Shown: piece by piece, positions 1 through 49,951 of the stretch
How the letters are laid out: every line of letters starts with the position of its first letter
How positions within the stretch are numbered: position 1 is the first letter of the stretch
Program-made: the position numbers and the translations under genes
NCBI GenBank assembly: GCA_013288075.1
Contig: JABDCQ010000002.1
Coordinates: forward strand, 32,447 to 96,446
DNA length: 64,000 nt
Direction: 5' to 3'
DNA from: Chlamydiota bacterium
GTDB lineage: Bacteria > Chlamydiota > Chlamydiia > Chlamydiales > Rhabdochlamydiaceae
The notes under the pieces: model-generated
Database searches by the model: none
What the model saw: only the letters and a program-made list of their open reading frames with translations
Told to the model about the DNA's origin: nothing

Positions 1-981
1 ATTTCTTTAGCAGCGCACAATACATGCGTTCTTCGTGCAGCAATTGATGTAGGGGCCGCTGGTCCCAAGTTGCGCATTGCAGAAGTTGATCGGACCACAA
101 ATAAAATCACCAAAATCTTATATACAAAGCAATGGTCTGTTTTTTTTCAGGACCATCTTTCAAAGAACTCTGATAAAAAACTTAGTCCCGAGATTATGTT
201 TGAGGGACTTAGGGCTATTAAAGAGGCCTTAGCTTTAGCAAAGTCTTTTGAAATACAAGGGGTTGTAATTGTTGGGGCTTCTCCATTCCGCAAGGCTCTT
301 AATGCTGATGAATTTGCTAAAAACATCTATTTAGAAAGTGGTTTGCCCATTCACATTTTAGATCAGGAATTAGAAGCTAAACTCGCTTTTCAGGCTGCTT
401 TAGCTAAGAGCAGCAGTCATTTGGAAAACCTTGTTGCATGGGATATAGGGGGCGGTAGTACGCAGTTTATTACACTTGGCTTAGAAGGGGAGTACCTTTT
501 TGAGGGAAGCTCTGAAGGATCTGGACCATTTAGAGATCTTATTGTGGAATCTATTCAGAAGCGGAGCCTTAAAGAATATAAGAGTCCGAATCCTCTATCC
601 GATGAAGAGGTATGTCTAGCAAAGGTTCATGCAGAGCTTCTTGCATCAAATGTCACCCAAGTTTTTAAAGACAAGTTGTGCCATTCCGAAACGAGAGTTG
701 TGGGTGTGGGCAGTGTCTTTGGCCGAGGCATTGCTTCTTTAGTGAGAGGTAAAAATCCGTTTACCACTGAGGATCTTGAGGGAGTTATTCACGATCTTAT
801 AGGAAAAACAGATTGTGATTTAGGCGGTGGGGATTTTGCCTGTGTTGAGGTTTCTAATGCCATCCTCGTCTATGGATTTATGAAAGAGCTTGGCATTCAA
901 AAGATGCATATCATGGATGTGAACAATGCCGATGGGGCAATAGTCTACAACCCTTTCTGGACAGATAAACAAAGAGAATAA
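1..981 (+). CDS. Ppx/GppA-family phosphatase (ASKHA fold); the 5' end may lie left of the window
   Basis: Frame 1 is open from base 1: ISLAAHNTCVLRAAIDVGAAGPKLRIAEV precedes the TTG at 70. AAIDVG..LRI resembles the phosphate-1 motif and WDIGGGSTQF the phosphate-2 motif of Ppx/GppA proteins. Stop TAA is at 979-981. Confidence 0.6.
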   Translation: MSLAAHNTCVLRAAIDVGAAGPKLRIAEVDRTTNKITKILYTKQWSVFFQDHLSKNSDKKLSPEIMFEGLRAIKEALALAKSFEIQGVVIVGASPFRKALNADEFAKNIYLESGLPIHILDQELEAKLAFQAALAKSSSHLENLVAWDIGGGSTQFITLGLEGEYLFEGSSEGSGPFRDLIVESIQKRSLKEYKSPNPLSDEEVCLAKVHAELLASNVTQVFKDKLCHSETRVVGVGSVFGRGIASLVRGKNPFTTEDLEGVIHDLIGKTDCDLGGGDFACVEVSNAILVYGFMKELGIQKMHIMDVNNADGAIVYNPFWTDKQRE

Positions 982-1125
982 TTTCTCTCCCTCTTCCTCT
1001 GTGGTTTCAAGTCTTCTGTGGTTTATATCTTGGCTAAGCCTGAAGCTTCCAACAGTCTTGCATTTTTTTAAACCACAGAGGGAAGAAACCACAGAGGAAG
1101 AGGGAGCGAGAAGAGAGAGATTATC
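978..1125. repeat. Family-A palindromic intergenic element, copy 1
   Basis: Left arm CTCCCTCTTCCTCTGTGGTTTC..CTGTGGTTTA pairs with right arm TAAACCACAGAGGGAAGAAACCACAGAGGAAGAGGGAG. The loop contains ATCTTGGCTAAG...CTTGCATTTTTTT. It lies between convergent genes and is followed by a T-run. Confidence 0.85.
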
Positions 1126-1167
1126 CTCTTTGTTTTTTTTCTTCTTAGAGTTACGCGTAGGCCTTGG

Positions 1168-2190
1168 CTACAACCTTTGTGGTTTTATTTCGGTGATCTC
1201 ACTTTGGAAAAGTGTTTTTCTTCTTTTTCCTTCAAAGCTCAATGTGTCGCAAATAGCCATAATTTCTTTTTTTGCTTGGGCTTCCTCTTCATCTAATTCT
1301 TTTGCCGGCTGAGCTTTTTCTTTTATATAGAGGTTGGAAAGATTGATCTGGATGGGTGTAAAGGAATTGAAATGAGGAGCGTTATACATAAAATTGTCTC
1401 CGCTCGCTAGTATAGTATAGGTTGTATTGAAAATTTTTGTTATTCTTTCAATACCTTGTTCTTCAAGAAGGCGTTTTTTGAATAAAACGAGTAAATTCTT
1501 GAAGCTAAGGTCAACTTTGTATCCGGAGTTAGATGGACCTGGACTGACTACAAGACATTTTCCAAGTGTTACTTTATCAGAAGAGAGGAGGGGGGCAGAA
1601 GCTGCTTCAGATTTATTTAAAAAATTTGATCTTTTTTCCCATTGATATAGCACGTTAGAGGAGTGCATTTTTTGTTCGTAACCCACTTCTGAAAAATCAA
1701 TAACGAAAGAAGAAGATTCTAAAATTGTATAGATTATTTTGATATTCTCTACATAGCATTTTTCTTCTTTGGGTATTTGTCTGCGGCCATCTTCTATGCA
1801 AGTCAGTTCATGTTTGAGGTTGATTTCTTGAGTCTCGGCACCTTCATTGTGCGGTAGCTTTACTTTGTAAGTTTTGGAGAAAATGGCTCTAAGCTGATCT
1901 GCTACGCGGTTAATGTCTTCACGGGCAATATAATCGGAGGTTTTGCTTGGAGCAGAATGAAAAACTTCGGATGTATCGTTAGATGATGTGCCATTTGGAG
2001 AATTGACATTGCCTGCATCTATTATTGACTTAAATAAAATCCACAGGTTTTTGTAGTTGAATTCAAGGTTAAAATTATCAGTGGAATTATACCATGTTCG
2101 TGTAAGGCGCAAGGTAACAGCTTCTGTCATGGGAATGTTTGCTGCTAAGTGTGTGGGGGTTATTGCGGCTGTTGCTGATGGAACTGACAT
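1168..2190 (-). CDS. Hypothetical protein with an apparent internal duplication
   Basis: 340-aa ORF with no motif I recognise. Two similar segments are present: NFNLEFNYKNLWILFKSIIDAG and GYKVDLSFKNLLVLFKKRLLEEQG. Confidence 0.5.
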   Translation of the reverse strand: MSVPSATAAITPTHLAANIPMTEAVTLRLTRTWYNSTDNFNLEFNYKNLWILFKSIIDAGNVNSPNGTSSNDTSEVFHSAPSKTSDYIAREDINRVADQLRAIFSKTYKVKLPHNEGAETQEINLKHELTCIEDGRRQIPKEEKCYVENIKIIYTILESSSFVIDFSEVGYEQKMHSSNVLYQWEKRSNFLNKSEAASAPLLSSDKVTLGKCLVVSPGPSNSGYKVDLSFKNLLVLFKKRLLEEQGIERITKIFNTTYTILASGDNFMYNAPHFNSFTPIQINLSNLYIKEKAQPAKELDEEEAQAKKEIMAICDTLSFEGKRRKTLFQSEITEIKPQRL

Positions 2191-2360: not shown

Positions 2361-3629
2361 TCAGGTTTTTGTACAGCATGCGAGATAGTCTTCTATAGAG
2401 GCTTTGAAGGCTTGCTCCAGTTCTTCGATGCTTTTTCCTTGGAACGTGATAGTGTCATTCAAGCCAATGACTTCTCCATGGAAAATTTTGGCTTCATCGT
2501 CATATGCGATTTGACTAAGGTAGTCCTTGTATTCCATCCGATTGATTTTCTTGCCAAGGATCTTAGTTTTTTCTGCATAAAGAGTTGCCTCTGCCTCAAT
2601 TTCTTCGATGGTTGGTAAAGAGGATTTGAGGTCGGCTGGAAGCGACTCCGCAAGTGCTGTTTCGTAGCTGGCAACTCCAATGGGAGAAAGGATTCCTTCT
2701 AAGGCATATTTCACAGTTACTGCGTTTTTACTTTTACAAAGGATTAATCCTATAGTGGGATTGTCCTCGGGTCTTTTCATTTTATCATCCATTACAGCAA
2801 GATAAAAATTCATCTGCCCGGTGAATTCTGGTTTGAAGGGAACGGCCTTTAACTCAATGACAAAATAGCAGCGAAGCTTAATGTGGTAGAAAAGAAGATC
2901 GAGGTAAAAATCTTGATCCCCGACCCGTAGAGGAACTTGCCTGCCAACAAAAGCAAAGCCATGACCGAGTTCCAAGAGAAATTTTTGGATGTGTATCATA
3001 AGACCATCCTCGATTTCTTTTTCATGAGCTTCTTTAATGATAGTCATGAAGTCAAAATTGTAAGGGTCTCGAAGCGTTTGTTCTGCAAGATCTGATTGGG
3101 GGGAAGGAAGTGTTTTTTGAAAGTTATTGGGAGCTTGTCCTTTTCTTTGATACAGTCCCGATTCAATCCAGAGCTCAAGCATGGATCGGCTCCAACCGCA
3201 TTCAATGGCTTTGTGTGCATACCATTCTCTTTCGGTTAAATTTTTTACTTTTTCAATGAGGATGACGTTATGCCACCAAGGGATGTTAAGGCAGAAGTCC
3301 GGAGGGGTGTCTAATTGTCCAGCAGCTTGCTGGACAATTTTATATGTTTTGTAAAACGTTCTCATATAGAATACGTTAGATCTAGAGAATCCTTTGAGAC
3401 CGGGGAATCCTGATTGGATGTCTTTGCAGAATCTTTCAATGACCTGACTTCCCCACTTTTCAGCTTCTTGACGATTTACAATTTCTTTGCCAAGCCACCA
3501 ATGAAGTTTGATTAGCTCTTGATTCACAGCTATAGCTGCTTTAATTTGTGACTGTTGAATACGCGTTTTGACGTCTTCTAAAAAAGAGGGATAGCTTTTG
3601 GGAAGAGCAGCGATAGCTTTAGGATTCAT
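2361..3629 (-). CDS. DUF1016/YhcG-type PD-(D/E)xK nuclease-like protein fused in frame to a truncated HicB-like antitoxin N-terminal domain
   Basis: The N-terminal ~350 aa have the DUF1016 pattern (LHWWLGKEI, GFSRSNVFYMRTFY, PWWHNVILIEKV, GFAFVGRQ...DLLFYH...VIELK). The last ~60 aa, MEYKDYLSQIAYDDEAKIFHGEVIGLNDTITFQGKSIEELEQAFKASIEDYLACC, match the HicB N-terminal domain pattern. Confidence 0.7.
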   Translation of the reverse strand: MNPKAIAALPKSYPSFLEDVKTRIQQSQIKAAIAVNQELIKLHWWLGKEIVNRQEAEKWGSQVIERFCKDIQSGFPGLKGFSRSNVFYMRTFYKTYKIVQQAAGQLDTPPDFCLNIPWWHNVILIEKVKNLTEREWYAHKAIECGWSRSMLELWIESGLYQRKGQAPNNFQKTLPSPQSDLAEQTLRDPYNFDFMTIIKEAHEKEIEDGLMIHIQKFLLELGHGFAFVGRQVPLRVGDQDFYLDLLFYHIKLRCYFVIELKAVPFKPEFTGQMNFYLAVMDDKMKRPEDNPTIGLILCKSKNAVTVKYALEGILSPIGVASYETALAESLPADLKSSLPTIEEIEAEATLYAEKTKILGKKINRMEYKDYLSQIAYDDEAKIFHGEVIGLNDTITFQGKSIEELEQAFKASIEDYLACCTKT

Positions 3630-3816
3630 AAAGAATCTCCTTACTGGATGATGCGGGCTTTGATTGCTTGTAGGTCGTTTTATAAAAATCTTAGCAAATA
3701 ACTTAAACTTTAACTTGATATTTCATCAAGATTATTATTGAAAAACTTTCAATAAAAACCTTTCTTCTAAAGGTTTTTTCTGTATAATGGTTTCTTTGAT
3801 AACGGGGGGATTTCTT

Positions 3817-5070
3817 ATGCGAAGAGCTTTAAAAAGTCTGGTTGTTTTATTTGTTTTTGTCATTCCAGCTTTTGTTAGCGCGGCTTTGCATGTGGGGGTG
3901 GGCAAAAAAGATCTTACGCCTCTATTAGGCACTCCTTCTGCTTGGTATTCTGAGCGTAAGGGAGAGGGAATGGAAGGCGTGCACGATCCTCTTTTAGCGC
4001 TTACTCTTTTCATTGATAATGAAGAGAAGAAACTCGCTTTATGCAGCGTTGATCACTTGGGCTTCACCTATGAAATGGTCCAAGAAATTATTGAAAGAGT
4101 GCATAAAGAACCGGGGCTAGAAGAATGCGAGGTTTATATTGCTTCTTCTCATACACATTCGGGTGGAGGCGCTTACTTAAATATTCCTGTTCTAGGACCT
4201 ATTCTTGCAGGTCCATATAATGCGGAAACTACGCAATTTTATGTAAAGCAGACAGCTGATGCAATTATTGAGGCAAGTAGGCATGTAGTTCCTGGAAAAA
4301 TAGGCATTGGTTATGGAAAGGCAGAGGATTTAAGCAAATATCGAGGGCTTTGGCCAAGAGATGTTTTGCCTCTTTCCGATGTTGCCGTGATTAAAGTCAT
4401 AACGCTTGATGATGCTCCTTTAGCAGCTCTTTTTAATTATGCTGTTCATCCTACAGTGTTAAATGCTCAAAACAGGGAATTTTCTGCAGACTTCGTAGGG
4501 TATGCAAGAGATCATTTGCAAACGCTTCTAGGCTCTTCTATGCAGCCCATCTATTTTAATGGCGCGCAAGGAGATATTATCCCGAAGATCTTTAATGAAG
4601 AAGACCGTTTTGAGTCGTGTGAACATTTAGGACAATCTTTAGCGGAAACAGTTGAGCAGATTTGGAATGAAATAGAAGTGAATGATTGCTTAACGATTAG
4701 CACGCAAAAAGAATCCTATGCCTTTAAACCAGAGGCAACGCCTTTTGGACTTACTTTTCCCATAGAGAGTTATAAAACAGAAATGAATATCATCGTTCTT
4801 AATGGGGTACATGCCTTTATTACGGTGCCAGGAGAGCTCAGCACTCTTTATGATAAGCATTTAAAAGAAACAGGAAGGGAGATGGGCTACAAAGCTGTCT
4901 CTATCTTTGGTCTCACAAATGATGCCCATGGGTATATTATTTTACCTGAATCTTGGAAACATAAGACCTTTGAATCAGGCCTTTCTTTTGGCGGAGAAAA
5001 TTACGGAGACGTAACTAAAAACCGTGCAGAAGCCCTTCTAAAAAACCAAAGGAAAAACAAAGAGGGATAA
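3817..5070 (+). CDS. Neutral/alkaline ceramidase-like secreted hydrolase
   Basis: A GGGGGA Shine-Dalgarno precedes the ATG at 3817. Signal peptide MRRALKSLVVLFVFVIPAFVSA. VGVGKKDLTP...GVHDPLLALTL...SSHTHSGGG matches the N-terminal ceramidase domain pattern. Confidence 0.6.
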   Translation: MRRALKSLVVLFVFVIPAFVSAALHVGVGKKDLTPLLGTPSAWYSERKGEGMEGVHDPLLALTLFIDNEEKKLALCSVDHLGFTYEMVQEIIERVHKEPGLEECEVYIASSHTHSGGGAYLNIPVLGPILAGPYNAETTQFYVKQTADAIIEASRHVVPGKIGIGYGKAEDLSKYRGLWPRDVLPLSDVAVIKVITLDDAPLAALFNYAVHPTVLNAQNREFSADFVGYARDHLQTLLGSSMQPIYFNGAQGDIIPKIFNEEDRFESCEHLGQSLAETVEQIWNEIEVNDCLTISTQKESYAFKPEATPFGLTFPIESYKTEMNIIVLNGVHAFITVPGELSTLYDKHLKETGREMGYKAVSIFGLTNDAHGYIILPESWKHKTFESGLSFGGENYGDVTKNRAEALLKNQRKNKEG

Positions 5071-5233
5071 TTTCTCTCTCTTTCTCTCTTTCTCTTTCTT
5101 CCTCTGTGGTTTCTTCCCTCTGTGGTTAAAAAAAATGCAAGCCCTTGGAATCTCTCGTCTTAGCCAAGATATAAACCACAGAGACAAGAAACCACAGAGG
5201 AAGAAAAGAGAGAGAGAGAGAGAAATTATTCCT
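5065..5233. repeat. Family-A palindromic intergenic element, copy 2 (loop inverted relative to copies 1 and 3)
   Basis: Arms CTTCCTCTGTGGTTTCTTCCCTCTGTGGTT and AACCACAGAGACAAGAAACCACAGAGGAAG. The loop is the reverse complement of the copy 1 loop. The element terminus contains the TAA stop (5068-5070) of the ceramidase-like gene. Confidence 0.85.
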
Positions 5234-5400
5234 CTTTGTTTCCAGGCTTGTCTCCAATGCACTGGTGCTCAATGATTTACATGCCACTTCATGCTTAACT
5301 TGTAAGTAAATTATTTAAAAATGATATAATATTATTCTTTATTATGTATTAATATATTTGTTTTATAATAGTTAAAAATTAAAACAAAAAGGAGGTAATT

Positions 5401-6033
5401 ATGTCGTCAATGAATGGTGTTGATTATGGAAGTCTTGGGTATGCAAGAAATGGTTGGCAAGATGTAGCGGTTGAAGGGAAAAATGGGGAAATGAAGACGC
5501 TTGGTTATCAGACCTTCCTTGATAAGCATAATAGGGACCAAAAAGTGCGTATGCTTCTGATTGTAGGGATCGTTGTACTGATAGGTGGGCTTGTTCTTGC
5601 TGCTGTAATTTGTGGAACAAAAGCGCATAATTTGCAGCCTCAGATTGATTCATTACACAATCAAATCCCATGGGATATGCCTCGTGGTAATTGGTCTAAT
5701 GAGATCTGGAAGATATTTAATGAGCGAGCAGGTTTAAGAAGTGCAGTATTTGGTTACGGCATGGCAATTGTGGGAACAGGTATTGCAACGGGTCTTTTAG
5801 CTATTCCTGTTATTATGCTATCAGTGAAAATATATAAAGCGAAGAAGGGTAACCTTGAGAAAGACACGCGTCAGATTACAGATATTATTAGTACATGGGG
5901 AGCTTCGCGGCTTTCGTTACAAACACTCATTGCTAAAAACACGCGGGATGAATTTTTTGACAAGTGCGAAAATATCTCTACTCTTAGGATTACAGAAGAA
6001 GAGAAAGCCTTTTTAGAAGCAAACAAACCCTAA
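5401..6033 (+). CDS. Hypothetical membrane protein (two hydrophobic segments)
   Basis: Strong RBS AAAGGAGG 5 nt upstream of the ATG. TM-like segments MLLIVGIVVLIGGLVLAAVICG and AVFGYGMAIVGTGIATGLLAIPVIMLSV. Confidence 0.55.
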   Translation: MSSMNGVDYGSLGYARNGWQDVAVEGKNGEMKTLGYQTFLDKHNRDQKVRMLLIVGIVVLIGGLVLAAVICGTKAHNLQPQIDSLHNQIPWDMPRGNWSNEIWKIFNERAGLRSAVFGYGMAIVGTGIATGLLAIPVIMLSVKIYKAKKGNLEKDTRQITDIISTWGASRLSLQTLIAKNTRDEFFDKCENISTLRITEEEKAFLEANKP

Positions 6034-6034
6034 A

Positions 6035-6089
6035 CCGAACAGCTTGCATAAATCCTCTTCAAGAGGATTTATGCAACAAGGCTGTTCGG
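6035..6089 (+). terminator. Strong stem-loop immediately 3' of the 5401-6033 gene (candidate terminator; no clear T-tract)
   Basis: CCGAACAGC-TTGCATAAATCCTCTT-C-AAGAGGATTTATGCAA-(CAAG)-GCTGTTCGG, starting 2 nt after the stop codon. Confidence 0.4.
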
Positions 6090-6103
6090 AGTCGTAGCTA
6101 TAC

Positions 6104-6269
6104 CCAAGATGACTCAAAAATCGGCAAAGTTGCCAAGGCTTTTATCCAGCTTTTTAATCTGCCGAAGTCACCCCTATAAGAATAGGGGCAACTTCAGCAC
6201 CGGCTAAAGCCTGATTAAAATTCTGGATAAAATCCATGCCAACTTTGCCGATTTTTGAATCATCTTCGG
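6104..6269. repeat. ~165-bp long imperfect palindrome (hairpin element)
   Basis: Left arm CCAAGATGACTCAAAAATCGGCAAAGTTGCCAAGGCTTTTATCCAG... matches the reverse complement of right arm ...CTGGATAAAATCCATGCCAACTTTGCCGATTTTTGAATCATCTTCGG. The centre is at CCCCTATAAGAATAGGGG. Confidence 0.7.
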
Positions 6270-6346
6270 TATAATTCGTATATTTGGGCCTGGTTTTTTA
6301 ACAACGAATCTATTATATTGCATCCAGTGTTATTTTGGAATGGTGC

Positions 6347-17488: not shown

Positions 17489-18271
17489 ATGAAACGCATC
17501 TTTACTTCACTTTCTTTGCTAGCAAGCACGATTTCAGGTGCTGTTAATGCTGAATGCTGCTCTGAACCTCTGGATTATTCTTTCTATATTAAGGTGGGCT
17601 CAGGGATCTCGTTTTCAGAGTCTGCTCATGTTGTTGCGCCTCCTCCAACATGGAATGAAGCCGTTCAAGGGTATAATGCAACACTTGGAAGCCCGGCAAT
17701 TGGGGCTTTTAGCATTGGCTGTGAGCTCATGCATTTAATGGATTTGGAAGTGAGTATTTCCAATCGCTCGACGTTTAAATATAGAAAATTTCAAACTCCT
17801 ACTGATGGGGGAGACTCTTACACAAGACAATTTGATCTTGATGTTACACCTATTCTCTTTTCGCTAAATCTTCTTGGAGCAGATATTCCTTATTTACATT
17901 GGGATATCGGCTGCAGCAAGATCTATCCGATGATAGGAGCCGGTGTTGGTGTTAGCCGTCTTTTAATCACAAATTTCAGAACAACGGGGCTGCCCCCTTC
18001 TGGGGATTCCTCTCCATTTGCAAGTTTTTCTGCCGAAAATGAGTACACACTGCGCAAAAATTTTACTTATACACTTCTTGCCGGCCTTGAGTACAATTAC
18101 AGTGATTATTGGGCCCTTGGAACAGGTTACCGCTTTTTTGATGCCGGTAATTTTAAGGGACCTCGATTTCAAAGAGTTGCTACAGGAGCTGCCGTTGATG
18201 TAGAGGGACAGGAATGGAGAATGCGTTTTAGAGCAAACGAATGGTTTATTGAATTTAAAATTTTCCTATAG
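17489..18271 (+). CDS. Outer-membrane beta-barrel protein (porin/OmpA-like)
   Basis: Signal peptide MKRIFTSLSLLASTISGAVNA. The sequence shows an alternating amphipathic pattern, is Gly/aromatic-rich, and has an aromatic-rich C-terminus EFKIFL. Confidence 0.55.
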   Translation: MKRIFTSLSLLASTISGAVNAECCSEPLDYSFYIKVGSGISFSESAHVVAPPPTWNEAVQGYNATLGSPAIGAFSIGCELMHLMDLEVSISNRSTFKYRKFQTPTDGGDSYTRQFDLDVTPILFSLNLLGADIPYLHWDIGCSKIYPMIGAGVGVSRLLITNFRTTGLPPSGDSSPFASFSAENEYTLRKNFTYTLLAGLEYNYSDYWALGTGYRFFDAGNFKGPRFQRVATGAAVDVEGQEWRMRFRANEWFIEFKIFL

Positions 18272-18332
18272 GATATTGAATGACGGAGGAATCAATGGCA
18301 TTATTGCATAATCTTAGCACAAGAATACATAG

Positions 18333-18496
18333 AGAGATAAAATTTTCCTCTCCTCTCTTTTTCTTCTCTGTGGTTTCTTTCCTCTGTGGTTTTATCTTTG
18401 GCTAACACTTGAGCTCACAAGAACTTGCATTTTTTTAAACCACAGAGGAAAGAAACCACAGAGAAGAAAAAGAGAGGAGAGATTTTATTCTCTCTG
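18333..18496. repeat. Family-A palindromic intergenic element, copy 3
   Basis: Arms CTTCTCTGTGGTTTCTTTCCTCTGTGGTTT and AAACCACAGAGGAAAGAAACCACAGAGAAG, with the loop ATCTTTGGCTAAC...CTTGCATTTTTTT. Confidence 0.85.
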
Positions 18497-18533
18497 TTAT
18501 TTTTCTTATTACGCAACAACACCGGAATCATCT

Positions 18534-20264
18534 ATGAAAATTAAATTTATTAGTCTTTTTTTGGTAACTTCTATAGTCAACCTTTTTGGCGATTCATCTC
18601 CTTATCGCTGCAAAATGTCTGGAAACGAGTTAGAGGCAGACATCATAGTAATAGGTGCTGGGGCGGCAGGCGGCATATTGATGAGCGAGCTCTCGGAAAA
18701 TGGTCTCTTTTCCGTATTAGGAATAGAGGGAGGCCTAAATCTAACAAGTGATCCAGCAATAGAGGCAGTGGGGCTTCCAGCGTTTTTGCTAGCAGGAACA
18801 GGAAAGGCCAAGTATTTTTGGCCAGGGTGGAACCAAACCCTACCGATGGCAGGGCTTAATGGACGAACAAGTGACTGGACAACAGGAATGATTCTTGGTG
18901 GTGGTTCATCAATTAACGGATTATATTATGGTCGTGGCTCGAACGCTGTGTACTCGCGTTGGGAACAAGTTTCAGGCAGCAGCAATTGGAGTTTGGATAA
19001 TATTCTGGAAACCTTCGAGGCTCTTGAGAGCTACCAAGGATTGACAATTACACCAGGAGCAAGGGGAGATAGCGGTGCTGTTAACGTGCTACAGACACCC
19101 ACGATATCGGAGGTAACAGCGGCAGTACTATTGCCCGCAACGCAGGCAGCGTTTCCTGGAATTCCAATAGTGACGGACTATAATGACCCGAGTGTGGAGA
19201 ATTGCATAGACCCTCGCTCTCAGTGGTTTATTGACCCTACGGGCACTAAACGGGTGAGCAGTGCAACAGCCTATTTAAATAGTTCGGTTATGACACCGGA
19301 GGGGCAAGGAGTTAACGGACACAAACTGTTTATGCTTTTTGATTCGGTAGCTGTAAAAATAATATTTGATAAGCACGGGTGCGCCAAAAAAGTAAGATAT
19401 ATGAAAGATGGCCAGCTTTTCGAAGCGAAAGCTCGGAAAGCCGTTGTTTTGGCAAGCGGCATCAATAGCAGTAAGTTGTTACAGCTTTCGGGTATAGGAC
19501 CGTCAGAAGCGCTAAAGAAGGCCGGGATCAAGCCTGTTTTTATTAATGAGAATGTAGGAAAACATCTCCAAAACCATCCGCTCATTTTTATTACAATGCT
19601 AGCAGATCCCGCACTTAGTGGTATCCCACCTGGAGCTCCGTATGCATTTACTATCCATAATGCCTACTTACCAGTACCGGGTGGTAGTGCTAGCGATCCA
19701 CGCATGCTACAGATTTTATTCGAATACATACCGACTAACCCTCCGTTAGTAACGATGGGATTTGATCTTTTGAATCCGGTTAGTGAGGGTAGTGTCACAA
19801 TCCAAAGCGATAATTCCTTTCAGATAGCCGCAGCGGACGACGGCTTTTACCAAAATCCTGTAGATCTCGCGAATATGAAAAGTGCCGTCTCGGTCTATAT
19901 CCGTGCTCTTTTAGATCAACTATTCATGATGTATCCATCCTTTCCGTTTTATTTTAGTCCTGTTTTAACTGATCCGATCAACTTAGTCAGGGCTGCTGGT
20001 TGGAGCGATGGAGCGGTTGAGCAGTACGTGAAAAATAATAGTAATCTTTCACTTGATATACACCACTTTGTATCGCACTGTAAAATGGCTCCTCTAAGCG
20101 CTGGAGGTGTGGTAGATGGCGACACACGTGTTTATGGCACAAAGAACGTCTTTGTAGCGGATAACTCAATCTGTCCGGTGATTCCTGATATTAATACTAC
20201 AGCACCGGCTATGATGATTGGATTGCGAACTAGCGAAATTCTAAAACGTATTTTGCGTAAATGA
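18534..20264 (+). CDS. GMC-family FAD oxidoreductase with an N-terminal signal-like leader
   Basis: DIIVIGAGAAGG (FAD-binding motif), GGGSSINGLYYGRG (GMC signature) and a C-terminal active-site region with HH...H. The leader is MKIKFISLFLVTSIVNLFG. Confidence 0.8.
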   Translation: MKIKFISLFLVTSIVNLFGDSSPYRCKMSGNELEADIIVIGAGAAGGILMSELSENGLFSVLGIEGGLNLTSDPAIEAVGLPAFLLAGTGKAKYFWPGWNQTLPMAGLNGRTSDWTTGMILGGGSSINGLYYGRGSNAVYSRWEQVSGSSNWSLDNILETFEALESYQGLTITPGARGDSGAVNVLQTPTISEVTAAVLLPATQAAFPGIPIVTDYNDPSVENCIDPRSQWFIDPTGTKRVSSATAYLNSSVMTPEGQGVNGHKLFMLFDSVAVKIIFDKHGCAKKVRYMKDGQLFEAKARKAVVLASGINSSKLLQLSGIGPSEALKKAGIKPVFINENVGKHLQNHPLIFITMLADPALSGIPPGAPYAFTIHNAYLPVPGGSASDPRMLQILFEYIPTNPPLVTMGFDLLNPVSEGSVTIQSDNSFQIAAADDGFYQNPVDLANMKSAVSVYIRALLDQLFMMYPSFPFYFSPVLTDPINLVRAAGWSDGAVEQYVKNNSNLSLDIHHFVSHCKMAPLSAGGVVDGDTRVYGTKNVFVADNSICPVIPDINTTAPAMMIGLRTSEILKRILRK

Positions 20265-21083: not shown

Positions 21084-21300
21084 AAAAAGAAAAATAACAG
21101 GAGGACAGATGAAAAAGAATTTTTTTTCTTTCTTCTCTCTGTGTGCTCTGTGATCTCTGTGGTAAAAAATTATCGAGAGAACCTTGCATCTAACGTGTTA
21201 GCATATTTTTTTACCACAGAGATCACAGAGCACACAGAGAGAAGAAAGAACCCTTCTTTTCTTTTATCCTGTCCATCTTAATCCTGTTATTTTTCTTTTC
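21084..21300. repeat. Family-B palindromic intergenic element, copy 1 (core 21128-21250, with extended flanking arms)
   Basis: Core arms CTCTGTGTGCTCTGTGATCTCTGTGGTAAAAAA and TTTTTTTACCACAGAGATCACAGAGCACACAGAG. The outer flanks GAAAAATAACAGGA and TCCTGTTATTTTTC are also complementary. Confidence 0.85.
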
Positions 21301-24205: not shown

Positions 24206-24231
24206 AGGTCAGCTCCATAGAGAATTGAAAA

Positions 24232-24285
24232 GTGGGGCAAGCTGGACTGGGGAACCCTTAGCGGGGTTATAAGTCCCTTTTCCTT
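24232..24285 (-). repeat. Degenerate copy of the 3' part of tRNA(CAT) (candidate old att remnant)
   Basis: GTGGGGCAAGCTGGACT is identical to the tRNA 3' end at 39463-39479. A decayed AGCGGGGTTATAAGTCC follows, compared with AGCGGGTTATGAGTCC in the tRNA. Confidence 0.6.
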
Positions 24286-32180: not shown

Positions 32181-32320
32181 TCATTGATCACATAATCCCT
32201 ATTCTTGCAAAAGACTTAGGGGGTCTTTTTGAGCGTTTTCGGCAAGTAATTTAAACTTGAACTTGATATTTGTTCAAGCATGTTATTGCTTATCTTAAGT
32301 GGAATGAGGTGGTTGTGAAA

Positions 32321-32363
32321 GTGGGGCAAGCTGGACTTGAACCAGAGACCAGCGAGTTATGAG
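32321..32363 (-). repeat. 43-nt copy of the 3' half of tRNA(CAT), from the anticodon to the 3' end (candidate att repeat)
   Basis: GTGGGGCAAGCTGGACTTGAACCAGAGACCAGCGAGTTATGAG differs at only 2 positions from 39463-39505. Confidence 0.8.
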
Positions 32364-36135: not shown

Positions 36136-37003
36136 CTATCTGATTTTCCAATCGTTGACGGGCATGTTTAATGGCTCTATGCAGCTTTTCCTGTAATACT
36201 TCCTTAGGGGCAGAGCGGTAAGATATTCGGCAACATGGATACCTGATTTGCCTAGCTCTAGAAGCTCAATGCGCTCTTGTTTTTTACCTGCACAGAGAAT
36301 TAGTCCCATGGGAGCTTCTTCCCCATGGAGGCGCTCGTATTTGTCAAGCCAGCGCAAGTAGAGCTCCATTTGGCCTTTGTGCTCGGGTTTAAAATCACCG
36401 AGCTTAATTTCAATAACGACAAGTCTTTTAAGGTCTCTATAAAAAAAGAGCAAATCAATGCGGAAATCTTCATCGTCAACCGTGATGCGTTTTTGGCGAG
36501 CAAGAAAACTAAAACCGGTACCAAACTCCAATAAAAACTGTTCGAGATCTCTCATAATAGCATCTTCAAGATCTTTTTCTATATATCGATCGTTGAGATT
36601 TAGAAATTCAAGTATATAAGGGTCGCGGAAGACAAGCTCTGGTGTTAAACGATCTTCATTGCGTAAAAGATCCACTTCAGCTCGAACCACTTCTTCTGGC
36701 TGTTTTGAAAGGGCTGTACGCTCATAGAGCATTGAATTAATTTTTTTACGCAAATCCCTTTCCATATTCCGCCACTAGTTGTTGCGATACAGTAGCAACG
36801 ATGTGTTGGCCGTATTGGGCTCGCCCTTCCTTAAGAAGTTCCCTGTGAATTCGATAGCCTATCTGCCAATAAAGCAAAGATAAGGTTGCATTTACAGTAG
36901 TAGCTACTGATTGACGAGCATCATTAATCATCTTTTTTAATTCGCTAAGAAACTCTTTAGAAGTTGTTGCTTTTACATTGCTGTCTTGGGTTTGGATGGT
37001 CAT
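36136..37003 (-). pseudogene. DUF1016/YhcG gene disrupted by an internal deletion and frameshift
   Basis: The N-terminal fragment (36746-37003) ends ...VAEYGKGFA-stop. The C-terminal fragment (36136-36765) starts in another frame at RDLRKKINSMLYERTALSK. The two ORFs overlap by 20 nt, and the central ~70 aa seen in the intact copy are missing. Confidence 0.65.
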
Positions 37004-39350: not shown

Positions 39351-39462
39351 TTCTATTTCCTTTATTCGACCCGTTTTGGCAGTGTGTTTTTGGGAAGCAG
39401 ATCAAAACAATCAACCAACTTTTTTTATCTAAATACCTCGTATACAAGAACTTGGGAAAAAG

Positions 39463-39536
<74 letters not shown>

Positions 39537-40551: not shown

Positions 40552-40749
40552 GGCAAAGATTATATCAGAACAAAGAATCAAAAATAATTAAAATAATTTT
40601 TGCACATAATCTTTTCTTTGATTATAGGATGAAGAAAGAAGGTGATAATGCGTAAAAAGTTGGAAATGCTCCGTTTTGTACTTTTGTCTCTACTGAAAAA
40701 TTGTTCTTTTCTATCGACTTTCAAATTTTCTTTTCTTGTGCGCTCTATC

Positions 40750-42039
40750 ATGCGCCTTTTATTCTTAAGAAAGTGTGTGTCTCTAATGCTCATCTCGGGG
40801 TTTATCTTTGGAACTCTTTATGCCGATGAACTTGGAGGGGATTTCGAAGATATCGATAATGCTGATGAACTTCTTACAATTCCCCCTGAATATGATGATG
40901 ATGAAGAGTATGCAGAGTGCGGAAGTGATAATGAAAGAGTGCGCGCAGATAGTTTACCTATCGACAGTTTTGAAGGGTCTTGCGAGCTTTATCTAGAAGG
41001 GTATATTCAGGCGCTTGTCGATGTGCATTATTACGAATTCCAAGTGGTTGTATCGGTAAGAGATAATACGGTGTATTTGGCAAATCTTCCTAACAATGAC
41101 CTCATTGCTAGCAGTATTATTTCGTTTGTTCAGGATTTACCCGATGTTTGCGATGTGGAAGTACGATGTGAAATGACAGAGGAGGAAAAGGCGATTCGTG
41201 AGGAGTATGTTGGAAAGCCTCAAGTGAATGGGATTTGGTTTCCTCAGTCTACAGTGCTTTTCTTGCCTCTTATTGCAGATCCAAGACAACCTATAAACTC
41301 AGCAAATTTAAGATTCGGGGATAAAATTGCGGGATATCAGGCCGTCGCTGTTTCTTTAGGCGATGACTTTCCTATTTTCCGCTGGAGAGATGTGCTTCCT
41401 TGGCATGGTGATATGCAAATAGGAATTGAAGCGGGAATCTGGGCGATTTTTAATTTTAAAGACAAGCCTCATAATGATAATGGAGATGTGTGCAAGCTTG
41501 TTAATACAGATTATTTTGTAGGGATTCCTTTAACATATGCTTTTGATAAGTGGTCGTTTAGATTGCGCGGTTACCATATTTCTTCTCACTTGGGCGATGA
41601 ATTTTTATGTGAAGCTCCTGACTGGGTAAAGAAGCGTACAAATCCAAGCTTTGAAGCCATTGACTTTTTCACCTCTTACCAATTTTCTTCAGGGCTTAGA
41701 GGCTATTTTGGTCCAGGGGTGATTGTGCATAGCGACAAATCGTTTAAGTTAAAACCTCTTTATGTTGAGTATGGAATGGAGCTTCGCATGTTTGGACGAA
41801 AGCTTTATTATCATAAACTCTATGGCACACCTTTTTTTGCGATGAACTTAGAAAACTGGCAGCAGCATGGGTGGTCGCTTGATTCTACATACATGATTGG
41901 CTATGAGTGGAGTAAGCTTCAAGGGATTGGACGCAAAATGCGCCTTTATGGAGAATACCACCAAGGCTTTTCCTATGAAGGTCAATTCTTCAACGAGCGC
42001 GTCAAATACGCCCAGCTCGGCTTCTCCTGGGGCTTCTAA
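40750..42039 (+). CDS. Putative outer-membrane protein (DUF1207-like, chlamydial type)
   Basis: Signal peptide MRLLFLRKCVSLMLISGFIFGTLYA, an acidic linker and a BON-like segment. The C-terminal half is beta-rich and ends QLGFSWGF. The DUF1207 assignment is from memory only. Confidence 0.5.
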   Translation: MRLLFLRKCVSLMLISGFIFGTLYADELGGDFEDIDNADELLTIPPEYDDDEEYAECGSDNERVRADSLPIDSFEGSCELYLEGYIQALVDVHYYEFQVVVSVRDNTVYLANLPNNDLIASSIISFVQDLPDVCDVEVRCEMTEEEKAIREEYVGKPQVNGIWFPQSTVLFLPLIADPRQPINSANLRFGDKIAGYQAVAVSLGDDFPIFRWRDVLPWHGDMQIGIEAGIWAIFNFKDKPHNDNGDVCKLVNTDYFVGIPLTYAFDKWSFRLRGYHISSHLGDEFLCEAPDWVKKRTNPSFEAIDFFTSYQFSSGLRGYFGPGVIVHSDKSFKLKPLYVEYGMELRMFGRKLYYHKLYGTPFFAMNLENWQQHGWSLDSTYMIGYEWSKLQGIGRKMRLYGEYHQGFSYEGQFFNERVKYAQLGFSWGF

Positions 42040-42054
42040 CAGGAGGAAACCAGA

Positions 42055-42213
42055 AAGATAAAATTCTCTCTTTTTCTTCCTCTGTGTGCTCTGTGATCTC
42101 TGTGGTAAAAAAAATGCCAACACGTTAGATGCAATGTTCTGCGATAAATTTTTACCACAGAGATCACAGAGCACACAGAGGAAGAAAAAGAGAGAGGGAG
42201 AGAAACCCTCTCT
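42055..42213. repeat. Family-B palindromic intergenic element, copy 2 (loop inverted relative to copy 1)
   Basis: Arms CTCTGTGTGCTCTGTGATCTCTGTGGTAAAAA and TTTTTACCACAGAGATCACAGAGCACACAGAG. It exactly fills the gap between two convergent genes. Confidence 0.85.
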
Positions 42214-42214
42214 G

Positions 42215-44326
42215 TTAGAGGACAAAGCCTTCGGGGTAGATGGGGCCGTCTTTGCCAATTTTTAGGGTGTTGTTGAAGAACTTGCGGTAGATGTTAAGGG
42301 CTTGCTTAGCATTTTGGACACAGAAAAAGCAATTAGAGACCCACTCTGAGCCTACAATCGTGCCGCTCTCTTGGTTGCACTGGAAAATGGGTGTGATCTT
42401 TTGTTTCCAGTATTCAGGATCGCCAAAGAGAAGGACGGGAGTAGCTGAAACAGAGCCCACTTTCCTTCTGACTTCTTCAAGAGCAAATTCAAAATCGGTT
42501 CCAATGCCTCCTATGAGAAAAATGGGAAAGTCTAGGTTGAATTCAGCTTGTCTTTCGACGAGTCTATCAAGCCGGTAAGTCATTTTGGCATCGATATAGG
42601 GGTTTTGCTTTTGTTCGTTTACAACACTTGTTTTATGTCCTTTAAAGTCGGCGATATTCGCGCAGGAAAGAATATTTAATGAACGCGCTACTTTATTGCC
42701 AAGTTCCATAACGCCTGGGCCGCCGCCTGTTACAAGCGTAATAGGGGTATGTTTATTAAGCAGAAGGTGCGTAACTTCATTTTTGAGCTCTAAGATCCCT
42801 TTCATCAGAGCTAGAAGTTCTTTTTCGAACGTTCCTTCTGTAAGGTTTGAGCCGTAGAGTCCAAAGGTTGTAGCGTTAATAAAGGTTTCTACTTGGGCAA
42901 GAGGCACAAACATGCCGGAATCTTTACCGGGCTTAACAATATATTTCAGAATCTTTTTTGTGGAGGTATCGGCCCAAAAAACAGGGATGCCAAATTTGGA
43001 AAGATCTAGAAGAAAGGATCTGTCTTCATGCGAGAAAAAATCGCCATAAGTATGAGAAGGAAATTGGAAGTAAATCCCTTTAAGGCATTTTTGAACAAGG
43101 GTGCCAAAAAGAATTTTTTTCATAAGAGGTGAAGGGAAGTATCTGCAGAAAAGAACGCCTTGGCTTGTAATAAGGCCCTCTTCCATGCTTTTTAAAAAGG
43201 GATAGGCTGCTTGCTGCTCGATATAGCGCTCTGCAAGAAGGCCTTGGGTTTCTGGGTGGGCAAGACCGGGGAAATCGTAGGGGTGAGGCTCTCTTGTAAT
43301 CCAGTCGCTCGGGGTGAGATTTAGAAACTGCTCTCCTTTAACAATAAAAACAGCGCACGATTTGTGTGAGGGTCCAGGCGCTGTACTAAATGCTTTAAAC
43401 ACATCTTCTGTATTTTCAAGGCAGCTTTGAAGTTGATCTCTATCGGAGAAGTAGATGTACTCTCTATGAGGCTCTAAGGTATAAAATTCTAGGGGAATTC
43501 TTTCGATTTCTTCTCTAGAGGATCCAAAAAATTCGTAAATATTTCCAGATGCTTTTGTTTCAGGGGCCAAAATGGAGGCTGCTGTGTGTTCATAACCTTG
43601 CGGTAGAAGCGAGTGAATGACTTTTCCAAACACTGTACGCACATGTAAAGGCTCTGTACGTACAAGAAGAATCTTTTTTTCCTGAAGTTTTTTTTCTTGG
43701 CCTGGATTCCATTTTTGACTTAGAGGAAGAAGCTCTCTTGTTTTGAATTTTTTATCGTGAAGGGCTTTTTCCAAAATGGGTAAAAATCCAAAAATTTCGT
43801 CCTCATAGGTTACAACGCCTTTTAAAAGAGGCAGAAAAGCTACTACTCTTCCCTCTATCTTTTCTAGGAAAAGTCCTTCTTTTTCAATCATGCCGCCAAA
43901 GGATAATAGAGGAGAGCCTAATCTGTCTGCTCTTCCAAACATACGCAGTAAATAATCCGGGTCTTTGACTTTGCGTCTTGGATCTTGTGCAAAAAGCTTT
44001 CCGATATAGGCGCCTTTTGTTAATAATTCAAGCAGTCTTAGGGCAATGCTTCCATAAGCAATAAGATGAAGTTTTATCTCTGCTGTTTTGTGCACGGGAT
44101 CTAAAAGAGATTCTAGGGAAATAGCATGGAGGCCTATTTGGCCAAGCGTGCTTTTAAGGTCGAAAATCACAAGAGAGGGATCAATCTTAAAGCCGACAAA
44201 TGCGGGAGAAATATTTTCTATAAGAATGCTTATTTCAAGTTTTGCGGGATCGATTTTTTTTATTTGGGTGATTTTCCCATCAGGTGTAACTAAGTCGTAA
44301 TGATCAGAAAAAAGATAGCTTTCCAT
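42215..44326 (-). CDS. Large protein with a C-terminal LOG/TIGR00730-type (PpnN-like) nucleotide-binding domain
   Basis: TGGGPGVMELGNKVA and PIFLIGGIGTDFEFALEE lie in the last ~200 aa. I did not recognise the N-terminal ~480 aa. Confidence 0.6.
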   Translation of the reverse strand: MESYLFSDHYDLVTPDGKITQIKKIDPAKLEISILIENISPAFVGFKIDPSLVIFDLKSTLGQIGLHAISLESLLDPVHKTAEIKLHLIAYGSIALRLLELLTKGAYIGKLFAQDPRRKVKDPDYLLRMFGRADRLGSPLLSFGGMIEKEGLFLEKIEGRVVAFLPLLKGVVTYEDEIFGFLPILEKALHDKKFKTRELLPLSQKWNPGQEKKLQEKKILLVRTEPLHVRTVFGKVIHSLLPQGYEHTAASILAPETKASGNIYEFFGSSREEIERIPLEFYTLEPHREYIYFSDRDQLQSCLENTEDVFKAFSTAPGPSHKSCAVFIVKGEQFLNLTPSDWITREPHPYDFPGLAHPETQGLLAERYIEQQAAYPFLKSMEEGLITSQGVLFCRYFPSPLMKKILFGTLVQKCLKGIYFQFPSHTYGDFFSHEDRSFLLDLSKFGIPVFWADTSTKKILKYIVKPGKDSGMFVPLAQVETFINATTFGLYGSNLTEGTFEKELLALMKGILELKNEVTHLLLNKHTPITLVTGGGPGVMELGNKVARSLNILSCANIADFKGHKTSVVNEQKQNPYIDAKMTYRLDRLVERQAEFNLDFPIFLIGGIGTDFEFALEEVRRKVGSVSATPVLLFGDPEYWKQKITPIFQCNQESGTIVGSEWVSNCFFCVQNAKQALNIYRKFFNNTLKIGKDGPIYPEGFVL

Positions 44327-45618: not shown

Positions 45619-45924
45619 CTAAGTCTATTTAGGCCTTTATTGACGCAAAGACGCAAAGGCGCAAAGGAAGAAGTCGCAAAGATGAATACAAAAAGGTTTT
45701 TAAGAATGCTTTTGCATTCTTAAAAATCTTTTTGTATTCACTGTTATATTTAAAGGGGAATCAGAGAAATTGCTCAAACATGTTACTTCATAAGAGATTG
45801 TTTTTCTCTGAATTTCCTTAAAACAATAGTTAAACATCTAGGGCCAAAGCCCTAGATGTTTGACCTTTGCGCTTTTCTTCGCGCCTTTGCGCCTTTGCGT
45901 CAATAAAAGCCTAAATAGACTTAG
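45619..45924. repeat. ~306-bp MITE-like element with terminal inverted repeats, copy 1
   Basis: Termini CTAAGTCTATTTAGGCCTTTATTGACGCAAAGACGCAAAGGCGCAAAGG and CCTTTGCGCCTTTGCGTCAATAAAAGCCTAAATAGACTTAG. Internal hairpins TTTTTAAGAATGC..GCATTCTTAAAAA and AAACATCTAGGGCC..GGCCCTAGATGTTT. No ORF. Confidence 0.8.
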
Positions 45925-45946
45925 GTTTTGCATTGAGAGTAACAAG

Positions 45947-47683: not shown

Positions 47684-47692
47684 GAAAATAAA

Positions 47693-48883
47693 ATGGACCT
47701 TTTGAAGAAAATAGAGGGTGTTAAAAAGCATTTAGCCGAAGAGAAAATAGATGGCTGGCTCATTTACGATTTTCAGGGAATGAATCCCCTTGCAAGAGAT
47801 TTTCTTGAGATCTCTTCTGATGCGCATATTACACGCAGATACTTCTATTGGATTCCGAAGGAAGGCAGCCCCATAAAAATTGTCCCTTTTATCGAAAGCC
47901 ATATTTTAGATCATTTGCCAGGAGAGAAAAAAGTTTTTCTAGAATGGGAAGTGTTACATGCTGCTTTAAAAGAAGTCCTTCAAGGGAAAAAAGTTGTTGC
48001 GATGGAGTACTCTTCTAAGTGCGCGCTTCCTTATGTTTCTAAGGTAGATGCCGGAACAATTGATCTTGTAAGAGAGTGCGGAGTCGAAGTTGTAAGTTCA
48101 GCCTCCTTTTTGCAGCACTATAGCTGCGTATGGGATGATTTCATGCTTAAAAGCCACGAGCTTGCGGCTAAAGTTTTAGAAGATGCAGTAGATGCCACCT
48201 GGAGCCATATCGCAGCCTGCTTAAAGGAAAACATCTCCATTACGGAATACGAAGTTAGCCAATTTATTCTTGGGCAGATCCATAAAGCCGGTTGCATCAT
48301 GGACGGCGAGCCTATTTGCGCTTTTAATGAAAATAGCGCAAACCCTCACTATGGCCCTTCAAAAGAAGGCTCAAAAGTTCTTCAGAAAGGGGACCTGATC
48401 TTAATTGATCTTTGGTGTAAGAAAAAGGAAGAGAGAAGTGTCTATGCAGATATCACGCGCATAGCAGTAGCTGGTAAAAAACTTCCCGAAGAAATAGCTA
48501 AGGTATTTAAGATTGTTAGACTTGCCCAGAAAACAGCAACCGATTTCATCCAAGAAAAGTTGGATAAAAAACAAATAGTGAAGGGCTTTGAAGCAGATAG
48601 AGCGTGCAGAAAAGTCATAGAAGACGCCGGCTTTGGCAAATACTTTACCCATAGAACAGGGCATAACATCCACATCAATGCGCACGGCCCAGGAGCGCAT
48701 CTAGATAGCCTAGAAACACTCGATGATCGCCCTCTTATTGCCAAGACATGCTTCTCTATAGAGCCAGGCATTTACTTGCCCGGCAAATTTGGCATAAGAC
48801 TTGAGTACGATGTGTATATTAAAGAAGATGGCAAGCTTGTCATTACAGGCGGCATCCAAGAAGAGGCCGCCACCTTGGCTTAG
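47693..48883 (+). CDS. M24-family metallopeptidase (Xaa-Pro aminopeptidase/dipeptidase-like)
   Basis: DLWCKK...YADITR, HRTGHNIH, SIEPGIY and RLEYDV are the pita-bread-fold metal ligands. Confidence 0.8.
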   Translation: MDLLKKIEGVKKHLAEEKIDGWLIYDFQGMNPLARDFLEISSDAHITRRYFYWIPKEGSPIKIVPFIESHILDHLPGEKKVFLEWEVLHAALKEVLQGKKVVAMEYSSKCALPYVSKVDAGTIDLVRECGVEVVSSASFLQHYSCVWDDFMLKSHELAAKVLEDAVDATWSHIAACLKENISITEYEVSQFILGQIHKAGCIMDGEPICAFNENSANPHYGPSKEGSKVLQKGDLILIDLWCKKKEERSVYADITRIAVAGKKLPEEIAKVFKIVRLAQKTATDFIQEKLDKKQIVKGFEADRACRKVIEDAGFGKYFTHRTGHNIHINAHGPGAHLDSLETLDDRPLIAKTCFSIEPGIYLPGKFGIRLEYDVYIKEDGKLVITGGIQEEAATLA

Positions 48884-49795: not shown

Positions 49796-49951
49796 AAAAG
49801 CCTCCTAGCTTATATTTTGCCCGGCATTATACATGCAATCGATTAAGAATTAATTAATTTTCACATCAAAATAAAGAATGATGCATTTGATGCATATTCT
49901 AATTTTTCCTTTGCGAGTTTTTATCAGCCTCATAGAGGCGTACGCATTAAC

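Follow-up and report, generated by a model that had tools for sequence, protein, structure and literature searches.

The 64,000-nt stretch of DNA analysed here (the window) comes from a Chlamydiota bacterium (GenBank assembly GCA_013288075.1, contig JABDCQ010000002.1, positions 32,447 to 96,446 of the forward strand) and carries three copies of a new repeat family, which we call family A. The family is real and well supported: it is a lineage-specific, interspersed foldback palindrome of 170-190 bp without an open reading frame (ORF) of its own, a variant of the general kind to which miniature inverted-repeat transposable elements (MITEs) and repetitive extragenic palindromes (REPs) belong. 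We favour, with moderate confidence, the reading that family A is a repeat of mobile origin, similar to MITEs and to the REP doublets called REPINs, which is able to act as a hairpin at gene ends and which sometimes donates a stop codon to the gene next to it. To our knowledge, repeat elements are almost absent from pathogenic Chlamydia. Our literature searches brought up no account of a MITE- or REP-like family in chlamydiae; for environmental chlamydiae, such as Waddlia (PMC2878342), they yielded repeats counted in bulk and nothing more.

Structure, copy number and conservation of family A

An earlier reading of this DNA from its letters alone (the sequence-only reading) had described three copies with a shared set of units and loop boxes, and all of these are present. 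Copy 1 (967..1135, loop in + orientation) has its termini at 967-989 and 1113-1135 and its units at 997-1007, 1014-1024, 1070-1080 and 1086-1096. Copy 2 (5055..5241, minus strand, loop reverse-complemented) has termini at 5055-5091 and 5205-5241 and units at 5102-5112, 5118-5128, 5173-5183 and 5189-5199, and copy 3 (about 18326..18499, loop in + orientation) has 45-nt arms at 18348-18392 and 18437-18481 that are 100% complementary. The earlier reading had located the elements correctly but drawn them too narrowly, as the palindromes reach about 10 nt further, to AAACAAAGAG / CTCTTTGTTT, and its string 'GATAATTTCTCTC' is exact in copy 2 only. Each copy folds into a very long hairpin, with energies of -88.4, -107.6 and -104.9 kcal/mol for copies 1, 2 and 3, and the folding check that had been suggested puts all three far beyond shuffled sequence (z = -9.4, -11.3 and -16.5, with none of 200 shuffles per element folding as well). 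Allowing at most one mismatch, we count 14 occurrences of the unit CTCTGTGGTTT in the window where 1.08 would be expected; 12 of them belong to the three elements, each arm having two. For the loop/arm junction CTTGCATTTTTTTAAACCACAGAG no occurrence is expected, yet it is present three times, in copy 2 on the minus strand. Alignment of copy 2 through the loop to copies 1 and 3 is possible only as the reverse complement, so its loop is indeed inverted.

From outside to inside, an arm consists of an A-rich leader, the conserved outer terminus AACAAAGAG (/ CTCTTTGTT), RRATAAAT, a CT tract of variable length, TTTCTTC, CTCTGTGGTTT, a 5-nt spacer and TCTGTGGTT, with the two CTCTGTGGTTT units of each arm 16 nt apart. 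The terminus AACAAAGAG is itself a degenerate AACCACAGAG, and some copies read AACCACAGAG/A there, the same word as in the inner units. The loop measures 45-50 nt in all copies and is put together from interchangeable half-loops, alpha (ATCTTTGGCTAA) and beta (CTTGCATTTTTTT or CTTGCATTTAAGAT); that of copy 1 is about 49 nt long, with the alpha box ATCTTGGCTAAG and the beta box CTTGCATTTTTTT. Alpha-beta loops are present in 32 copies, 15 in + and 17 in - orientation, and the claim that the element occurs both ways round thus extends to the family as a whole, while alpha-alpha loops, found in about 12 copies, make the element a near-perfect palindrome. No promoter or credible ORF was seen by eye in the loop. 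Loop orientation is random with respect to the direction of transcription (7 vs 11), and a strand-specific function of the loop boxes was rejected on that ground.

Six arms folded singly gave energies of -3.4 to -6.5 kcal/mol (z = +0.17 to -2.44). Because lone arms fold no better than shuffles, the element is one long hairpin and not two small ones, and the possibility that each arm is a REP-like hairpin in its own right was rejected. The consensus fold from RNAalifold has 41 pairs. In an Rfam 15 scan only tRNAs reached the gathering score, the elements giving sub-threshold matches to generic miRNA-precursor hairpins. At least five A are present in the eight outer nt at 25 of 60 termini, against a background of 8%, so that about 40% of the ends look like an A-tract/stem/U-tract module; the base of the stem is AT-rich, and about 60% of the ends have no clear A/T tract. 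The T-rich run said to follow each copy is there on the + strand for copies 1 and 3 but is clear only on the - strand for copy 2.

The source of the window is a novel member of the Chlamydiota. A DUF818 'Chlamydia CHLPS' protein (Pfam) is encoded in it, and where homologues of the Ppx and ceramidase proteins carry a taxon name, they come from metagenome-assembled genomes (MAGs) of Chlamydiales, Parachlamydia and Rhabdochlamydiaceae and are only 63-76% identical in protein sequence. Scanning metagenomes with the two-unit arm pattern yielded at least 35 loci, at least 25 of them from the Joint Genome Institute (JGI) assembly Ga0207127, whose contig Ga0207127_10241 matches the window over 6.7 kb with 99.985% identity, which identifies Ga0207127 as the same organism. 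With a profile built from the three window copies (cut-off at least 60 bits, redundant copies removed), we found at least 46 non-redundant copies in a sampled sequence of about 323 kb (sampled loci carry numbers with the prefix L): three in the window, 42 on other Ga0207127 contigs and one in a sibling sample (Ga0207097, L026). By the identity just given, 45 of the 46 come from this genome, and the further copies that the sequence-only reading had asked after do exist. Counts from the pattern scans of genome contigs and metagenomes are lower bounds. As the loci were chosen for holding a copy, the unbiased density is four per about 64 kb, the fourth being a copy that starts about 75 nt after rpoC, just past the end of the window; extrapolated, this would mean roughly a hundred or more copies per genome. 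Plasmid and viral collections gave no family-A match. Logan short-read contigs of two runs end inside family-A elements, as expected of a dispersed repeat, and the family fragments short-read assemblies of this organism.

Both arms match the 22-base pattern exactly in 35 of 46 copies, which after correction for ascertainment through one arm corresponds to about 99% conservation of the units per base, while the loop centres are conserved at only 30-70%. Pairwise identity between copies averages 76% and reaches 86% at most; the copies are old or fast-diverging. Compensatory evolution of the arms had been suspected because copy 3 is a perfect palindrome and because CT tracts are not the same in all copies. 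Arm variants combine almost independently of each other, however, and strong compensatory evolution was rejected: arm identity is 84.4% within copies and 81.6% between them (p = 6e-4), the inter-unit spacers have matching variants in 23 of 44 copies where 17 would be expected (p = 0.026), and the RNAalifold covariation term is -1.44 kcal/mol. Across the pairs of the hairpin, U-G and C-A cells are about equal in frequency, so neither transcript strand is favoured.

Placement at gene ends and contribution of stop codons

The sequence-only reading had put the element at gene 3' ends, and this placement is borne out by the larger sample: when open frames of at least 150 codons are considered, 39 of 88 termini lie near a stop (-23 to +20 nt), compared with 1.7% of random positions. 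Among the 40 copies with callable neighbours, 16 stand between convergent, 19 between tandem and 5 between divergent genes, and a copy is present in 15 of 40 convergent spacers as against 17 of 156 tandem ones (odds ratio 4.9, p = 1e-4). Copies are bracketed by housekeeping genes, for example those for GroEL, DapB, NAD synthase and Sua5. Symmetric (alpha-alpha) loops are found in 8 of 16 convergent but 1 of 19 tandem copies (44 copies, Fisher p = 0.005, a post hoc comparison). In the window, copy 1 lies between the convergent genes ppx (end 981) and ORF 1168-2190(-), and copy 3 lies in a tandem context, with ORFs 17489-18271 and 18534-20264 on either side.

At many convergent gene pairs the element alone fills the spacer, and where nothing else lies between two genes it is the only candidate terminator. 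An intrinsic (Rho-independent) terminator or SPRITE-like element has a stable stem with a U-tract immediately behind it, downstream of a gene; of these, family A shows the stem, with A/T tracts at some of its ends only. A simple terminator scan detects only small terminal sub-hairpins of the elements, and it finds 25 classical terminator-like sites in the first 20 kb, compared with 17.7 +/- 4.8, which is no clear enrichment. The role of bidirectional terminator that had been suggested for the element seems plausible for some copies, given the A/T tracts at 25 of 60 termini and the many convergent gene pairs with nothing else between them.

About 12 stop codons lie inside the conserved terminus. 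In the window, the TAA codons at 979-981 and 5068-5070 are located within it (...GAGrrATAAT) and end ORFs 70-981 and 3787-5070, as had been claimed. The first is the stop of the Ppx/GppA gene (979..981, + strand), which lies in the left terminus of copy 1, so that the last codons, (D)KQRE, are encoded by the element: the window Ppx ends ...FWTDKQRE*, about 40 homologues end ...FWE* or ...FWK*, and DKQRE-stop is encoded by ATAAACAAAGAGAATAA. Judged from this comparison, the Ppx tail is shown to be element-derived. The second is the stop of a ceramidase-like gene (3787-5070; stop 5068..5070, + strand) in the terminus of copy 2, where a KNKEG tail corresponds to leader plus terminus; here the evidence is weaker, because C-termini vary within the ceramidase family. 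Family A also gives rise to spurious ORFs, as suspected in the sequence-only reading, for example 820-1092(-) and 1001-1312(+). Recognising the family thus improves annotation, since it accounts for false ORFs and for altered annotated C-termini.

Origin of family A

The sequence-only reading had taken the element for a MITE, REP or Correia-type mobile hairpin. What stands of this is a dispersed hairpin repeat present in two orientations; the target duplication that defines MITEs and Correia elements was not found, nor were the sub-palindrome and tag that define REPs and REPINs, and family A cannot be placed cleanly in any of the MITE, REPIN and Correia families. We infer a mobile origin as the most likely one. 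The loci of relatives bear on it: at ppx the relatives have 13-25 nt spacers and no element, and downstream of the ceramidase gene another gene overlaps or adjoins it and the element is again missing. About 60 kb of their DNA gave no family-A match, and CACAGAG heptamers near their flanking genes number 0-3 in 13-21 kb. The comparison of orthologous loci thus shows the element to be absent from both loci compared, which would make these loci 'ancestrally empty' and not a case of empty-site polymorphism.

A number of results weigh against the favoured reading. The same relatives, at 63-76% protein identity, are too distant for their loci to count as true empty sites. The 22 copies for which both termini are present have best flanking direct repeats of 2.73 nt on average, and mismatched flank pairs have 2.77 nt; duplication of TA or of another target was rejected, since a T precedes AAC in only 14 of 52 termini and no duplication is seen. 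Pfam scans of 40 ORFs in the window and next to copies revealed no transposase, and an all-against-all comparison of ORFs revealed a U-box/TPR family as the sole multi-copy protein family and, again, no transposase. A tblastn search with IS200 TnpA and E. coli RayT (a weak test, with part of the genome as target) had a best E of 0.87 in 323 kb. An autonomous element with these ends was not found in the same sequence, where no arm pairs enclose a long segment and solo arms are rare. There is no sign of recent movement, because no two copies exceed 86% identity, and near-invariant units in copies that differ by about 24% argue for a constraint beyond the neutral decay of dead transposons. As for the hairpin at gene ends, the pairing itself is only weakly protected, five of the 40 copies lie between divergent genes, and in the region L043 13865-13996, just beyond window position 64000, the copy in which the contig ends follows, after about 35 nt, the canonical intrinsic terminator of rpoBC (CCCCTATCTAGCAATAGATAGGGG then seven Ts) behind rpoC, so that termination there would not need the element.

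The favoured reading can be put as follows. Family A would be non-autonomous DNA that was spread, probably long ago, by a trans-acting protein, which would recognise the invariant units and leave no target duplication. Copies are found almost only a few nt after stops, above all between convergent genes, presumably because it is there that they survive. Where a copy overlaps a gene end, the gene takes its stop from the TAA in the terminus of the element and gains a few residues. Transcription from either side would pass through a CU-rich arm and then a GA-rich arm and could produce a stem of about 60-70 bp with A/U tracts flanking it; at genes without another terminator, such a stem could end convergent transcription or insulate it, and could act as a barrier to 3' exonucleases. 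The conservation of the units in diverged copies may point to a use by the host or by a host protein.

Selection without transposition is a rather unlikely explanation, but the one that survives best among the alternatives: family A would be a gene-end module maintained by the host, either a bidirectional terminator or an mRNA 3'-end stabiliser, possibly with a CU-rich arm that loads Rho. The tight abutment to stops, the enrichment between convergent genes and the many convergent pairs at which the element is the whole spacer would all follow from such a role, as would the inclusion of A/T tracts in the element, the lack of near-identical copies, the (post hoc) excess of symmetric loops between convergent genes and the lack of a clear enrichment of classical terminator-like sites in the first 20 kb. 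The conservation of the units at about 99% per base while the loop centres drift is also in its favour, yet structure would suffice for a terminator, which needs neither four invariant 11-mers nor conserved loop boxes. Moreover, 21 of 44 copies combine arm variants that do not match, C-A is about as frequent as U-G, loop orientation ignores transcription, one copy stands behind a perfect canonical terminator, five of 40 copies are placed between divergent genes, and relatives do with 13-25 nt spacers at the same genes.

Quite unlikely, in our view, is a REPIN-like system in which single-stranded hairpins are mobilised by a single-copy HUH/Y1 enzyme (a RAYT or an IS200-like one) encoded elsewhere in the genome. 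An inverted doublet in one hairpin, an extragenic location with a 3'-end bias and dozens of copies are features of REPINs (PMC3116915), and the absence of target duplications and the strong conservation of units on both arms agree with them; against this, the arms lack a local palindrome of the REP type (z = +0.2 to -2.4), the GTAG/CGTC tag is absent from the consensus, 170-190 bp exceeds described REPINs, and the tblastn search, weak as it is, brought up no enzyme of this kind. More doubtful still is the suggestion that the elements are arrays of binding sites for a host DNA-binding protein (of the nucleoid, replication or recombination), with AACCACAGAG units as the functional part and the palindrome as a by-product of paired sites. 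The invariant units with their fixed 16-nt spacing and the fixed loop length of 45-50 nt would suit it, and so would the two-unit motif found inside-out in Chlamydiales MAGs and also in 52-64% G+C contigs (see below), but there is no known candidate protein, the sites are found behind stops and keep away from promoters, and the DNA around close relatives of the flanking genes lacks the motif. Finally, attC-like sites of an integron-type tyrosine-recombinase cassette system are very improbable: imperfect palindromes at ORF 3' ends, often over the stop, with AAC...GTT as the outermost conserved triplets and no target duplication, are offset by T-rich bases outside GTT where attC cores have RRRY, by housekeeping genes in both orientations in place of promoterless cassettes in one orientation, and by the sampled sequence, in which no integrase was seen.

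The near-invariant 11-mers in diverged copies are a concrete handle for finding a partner protein. Family A is a tractable case for two questions, namely how duplication-free families move and whether palindromic repeats are kept as gene-end signals.

Related palindromes, neighbouring features and comparison with known systems

A family-B palindrome at 21085..21299 has the same leader and terminus (AAAAGAAAAATAACAGGA) as family A and inner arms CTCTGTGTGCTCTGTGATCTCTGTGGT, which hold three CTCTGTG units at 9-nt spacing. Because leader and terminus are common to both while the inner arms differ, family B belongs to the same superfamily. Its second copy (42037..42217) lies between the convergent genes 40642-42039 (+) and 42215-44326 (-) and spans exactly from stop to stop, the TAA of both genes being the TAA of the TAAC termini. 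A third palindromic family, with arms of tandem GACGCAAAG/GCGCAAAGG units, is seen at 45619-45927 and 49949-50259; these copies are inverted to each other and bracket about 4 kb (genes 45860-49795), and a Logan contig starts inside the second.

Outside this genome, the exact two-unit motif of family A is present in other Chlamydiales MAGs (L001, L013, L005) as the outer stem of a shorter, 'inside-out' hairpin; contigs with a G+C content of 52-64% (L014, L022/24/33, L028) have it too. In a soil contig of 51% G+C (L004), the TAA of a gene (TAA-CCACAGAG) runs directly into the terminus TAACCACAGAG of a nested palindrome about 380 bp in size, and in L028 (63% G+C) a CACAGAG-repeat palindrome lies a few nt from a stop codon. 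Nested mosaic palindromes from organisms of 44-63% G+C (L004 990-1370, L013 90-290, L005 1530-1720 and L028 11340-11460, of which those in L004 and L028 abut a stop codon) combine ACCACAGAG units with other tandem 7-9-mers (CACCGAG, GATCCTGCC and others). The occurrence of the motif in other contigs suggests a larger class without being sufficient to define it. The inside-out motif in Chlamydiales, the stop-abutting palindromes of the soil contigs L004 and L028 and the family-B termini hint at an unlikely possibility, in which AACCACAGAG/CACAGAG palindromes would be cross-phylum, duplication-free 'gene-end cassettes': a structure-specific recombinase acting on hairpin or single-stranded DNA would insert them at or over stops, they would bring with them a stop and a bidirectional terminator, and host selection would keep the units invariant.

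Copy 3 of family A is bracketed by an outer inverted pair of the motif GYRTTRTTGCRTAA (18298-18311 on the + strand and 18509-18522 on the - strand). This is a separate repeat module, as GYRTTRTTGCRTAA was rejected as the true element end or an integral part of family A, being nearby in no more than 4 of 44 copies. The motif has 31 occurrences in 295 kb of this genome, is found again in the window at 6069-6082 and adjoins a palindrome in another MAG (L013). At the left arm of copy 3 there is also a 36-codon ORF (18296-18406) with a GGAGG Shine-Dalgarno sequence, which crosses the CT-rich arm (MALLHNLSTRIHREIKFSSPLFFFSVVSFLCGFIFG*) and whose stop is the TAA of the loop alpha box; it could be a genuine small hydrophobic peptide or an accident of the repeat. 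Directly after the gene at 5401-6033 comes a hairpin, TTGCATAAATCCTCTTCAAGAGGATTTATGCAA (6046-6082), followed by an unrelated palindrome (6099-6273) with 61-nt arms that are 89% complementary.

Three U-box/TPR genes in the sample encode proteins that are 85-88% identical, two on locus L030 (7380-8996 and 9832-11424) and one on L010 (12606-13478); such eukaryote-like effectors are a typical feature of environmental chlamydiae. On L030 the two genes follow each other in tandem, with a family-A copy or remnant upstream of each, so the element was duplicated together with the gene. The window contains two genes for the PDDEXK nuclease YhcG/DUF1016, a full-length one between copies 1 and 2 (2361-3629, -) and a truncated one (36136-36765, -). 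Upstream of a tRNA-Met gene (39462-39536, -) lie two partial 3' copies of it (24228-24248 and 32317-32363), which delimit two island-like segments rich in accessory genes, namely GNATs, a photolyase, APH, MarR, a glyoxalase, EVE and a YhcG fragment. Such an arrangement is the signature of tandem integrations at a tRNA gene; Pfam recognised no integrase in these segments.

Among known systems, MITEs are defined by terminal inverted repeats around a short core without a transposase gene and by a length below about 400 bp, and the bacterial ones include Correia elements (CREE) of Neisseria, ERIC, RUP and Nezha (PMC3184786). Family A resembles them in its size class (100-200 bp), its terminal inverted repeats, its lack of an ORF, the long stem-loop that its RNA would form and its interspersed intergenic location in both orientations. 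It differs in having no target duplication, notably no TA, and no known cognate insertion sequence, and in being most conserved subterminally and beside the loop and not at the tips. In CREE a TA duplication abuts 26-bp inverted repeats, whereas in family A the base before AAC is a T in only 14 of 52 termini; Correia elements are, in addition, typically promoter-proximal, while family A is found at gene 3' ends.

REPINs are REP doublets that form hairpins (Bertels and Rainey 2011, PMC3116915). Like them, family A has two inverted conserved blocks and a spacer in one hairpin, blocks far better preserved than the spacer, no target duplication and tens to hundreds of extragenic copies. Each arm of a REPIN contains a REP of 20-40 nt that is an imperfect palindrome in itself. 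In family A the arms are not short palindromes but carry sub-repeats in tandem as well as a microsatellite-like CT/GA tract, the length of the element is roughly doubled, and no RAYT was identified in the weak tblastn search. The end of a REP is marked by the tetranucleotide GTAG or CGTC (PMC3733652), and neither is present in the family-A consensus.

Integron attC sites have RYYYAAC ... GTTRRRY cores, and family A shares the AAC/GTT but has A/T-rich bases outward of it. The palindromic elements of Rickettsia (RPE) are likewise palindromic repeats of an obligate intracellular bacterium that add coding sequence to host proteins; RPEs, however, lie in frame inside genes, whereas family A gives only the last 1-6 codons and the stop, the rest being non-coding. 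With terminator-like repeats after genes, and with the bacterial interspersed mosaic elements (BIMEs), family A has in common its terminator-like form, its position after genes and its mosaic, modular build; its stem, of 60-70 bp, would be much longer, with an AT-rich base, and symmetric, and would therefore be bidirectional. A REP of E. coli that lies no more than about 15 nt from a stop codon can stall ribosomes, a geometry that many family-A copies share. Eukaryotic foldback (FB) transposons, too, have long inverted arms of short tandem sub-repeats and a variable centre and arm length; they are kilobase-scale and make target duplications, so the likeness is an analogy only. The sub-repeated arms, the variable CT tract and the swappable half-loops of family A resemble a miniature foldback element or a BIME-like mosaic.

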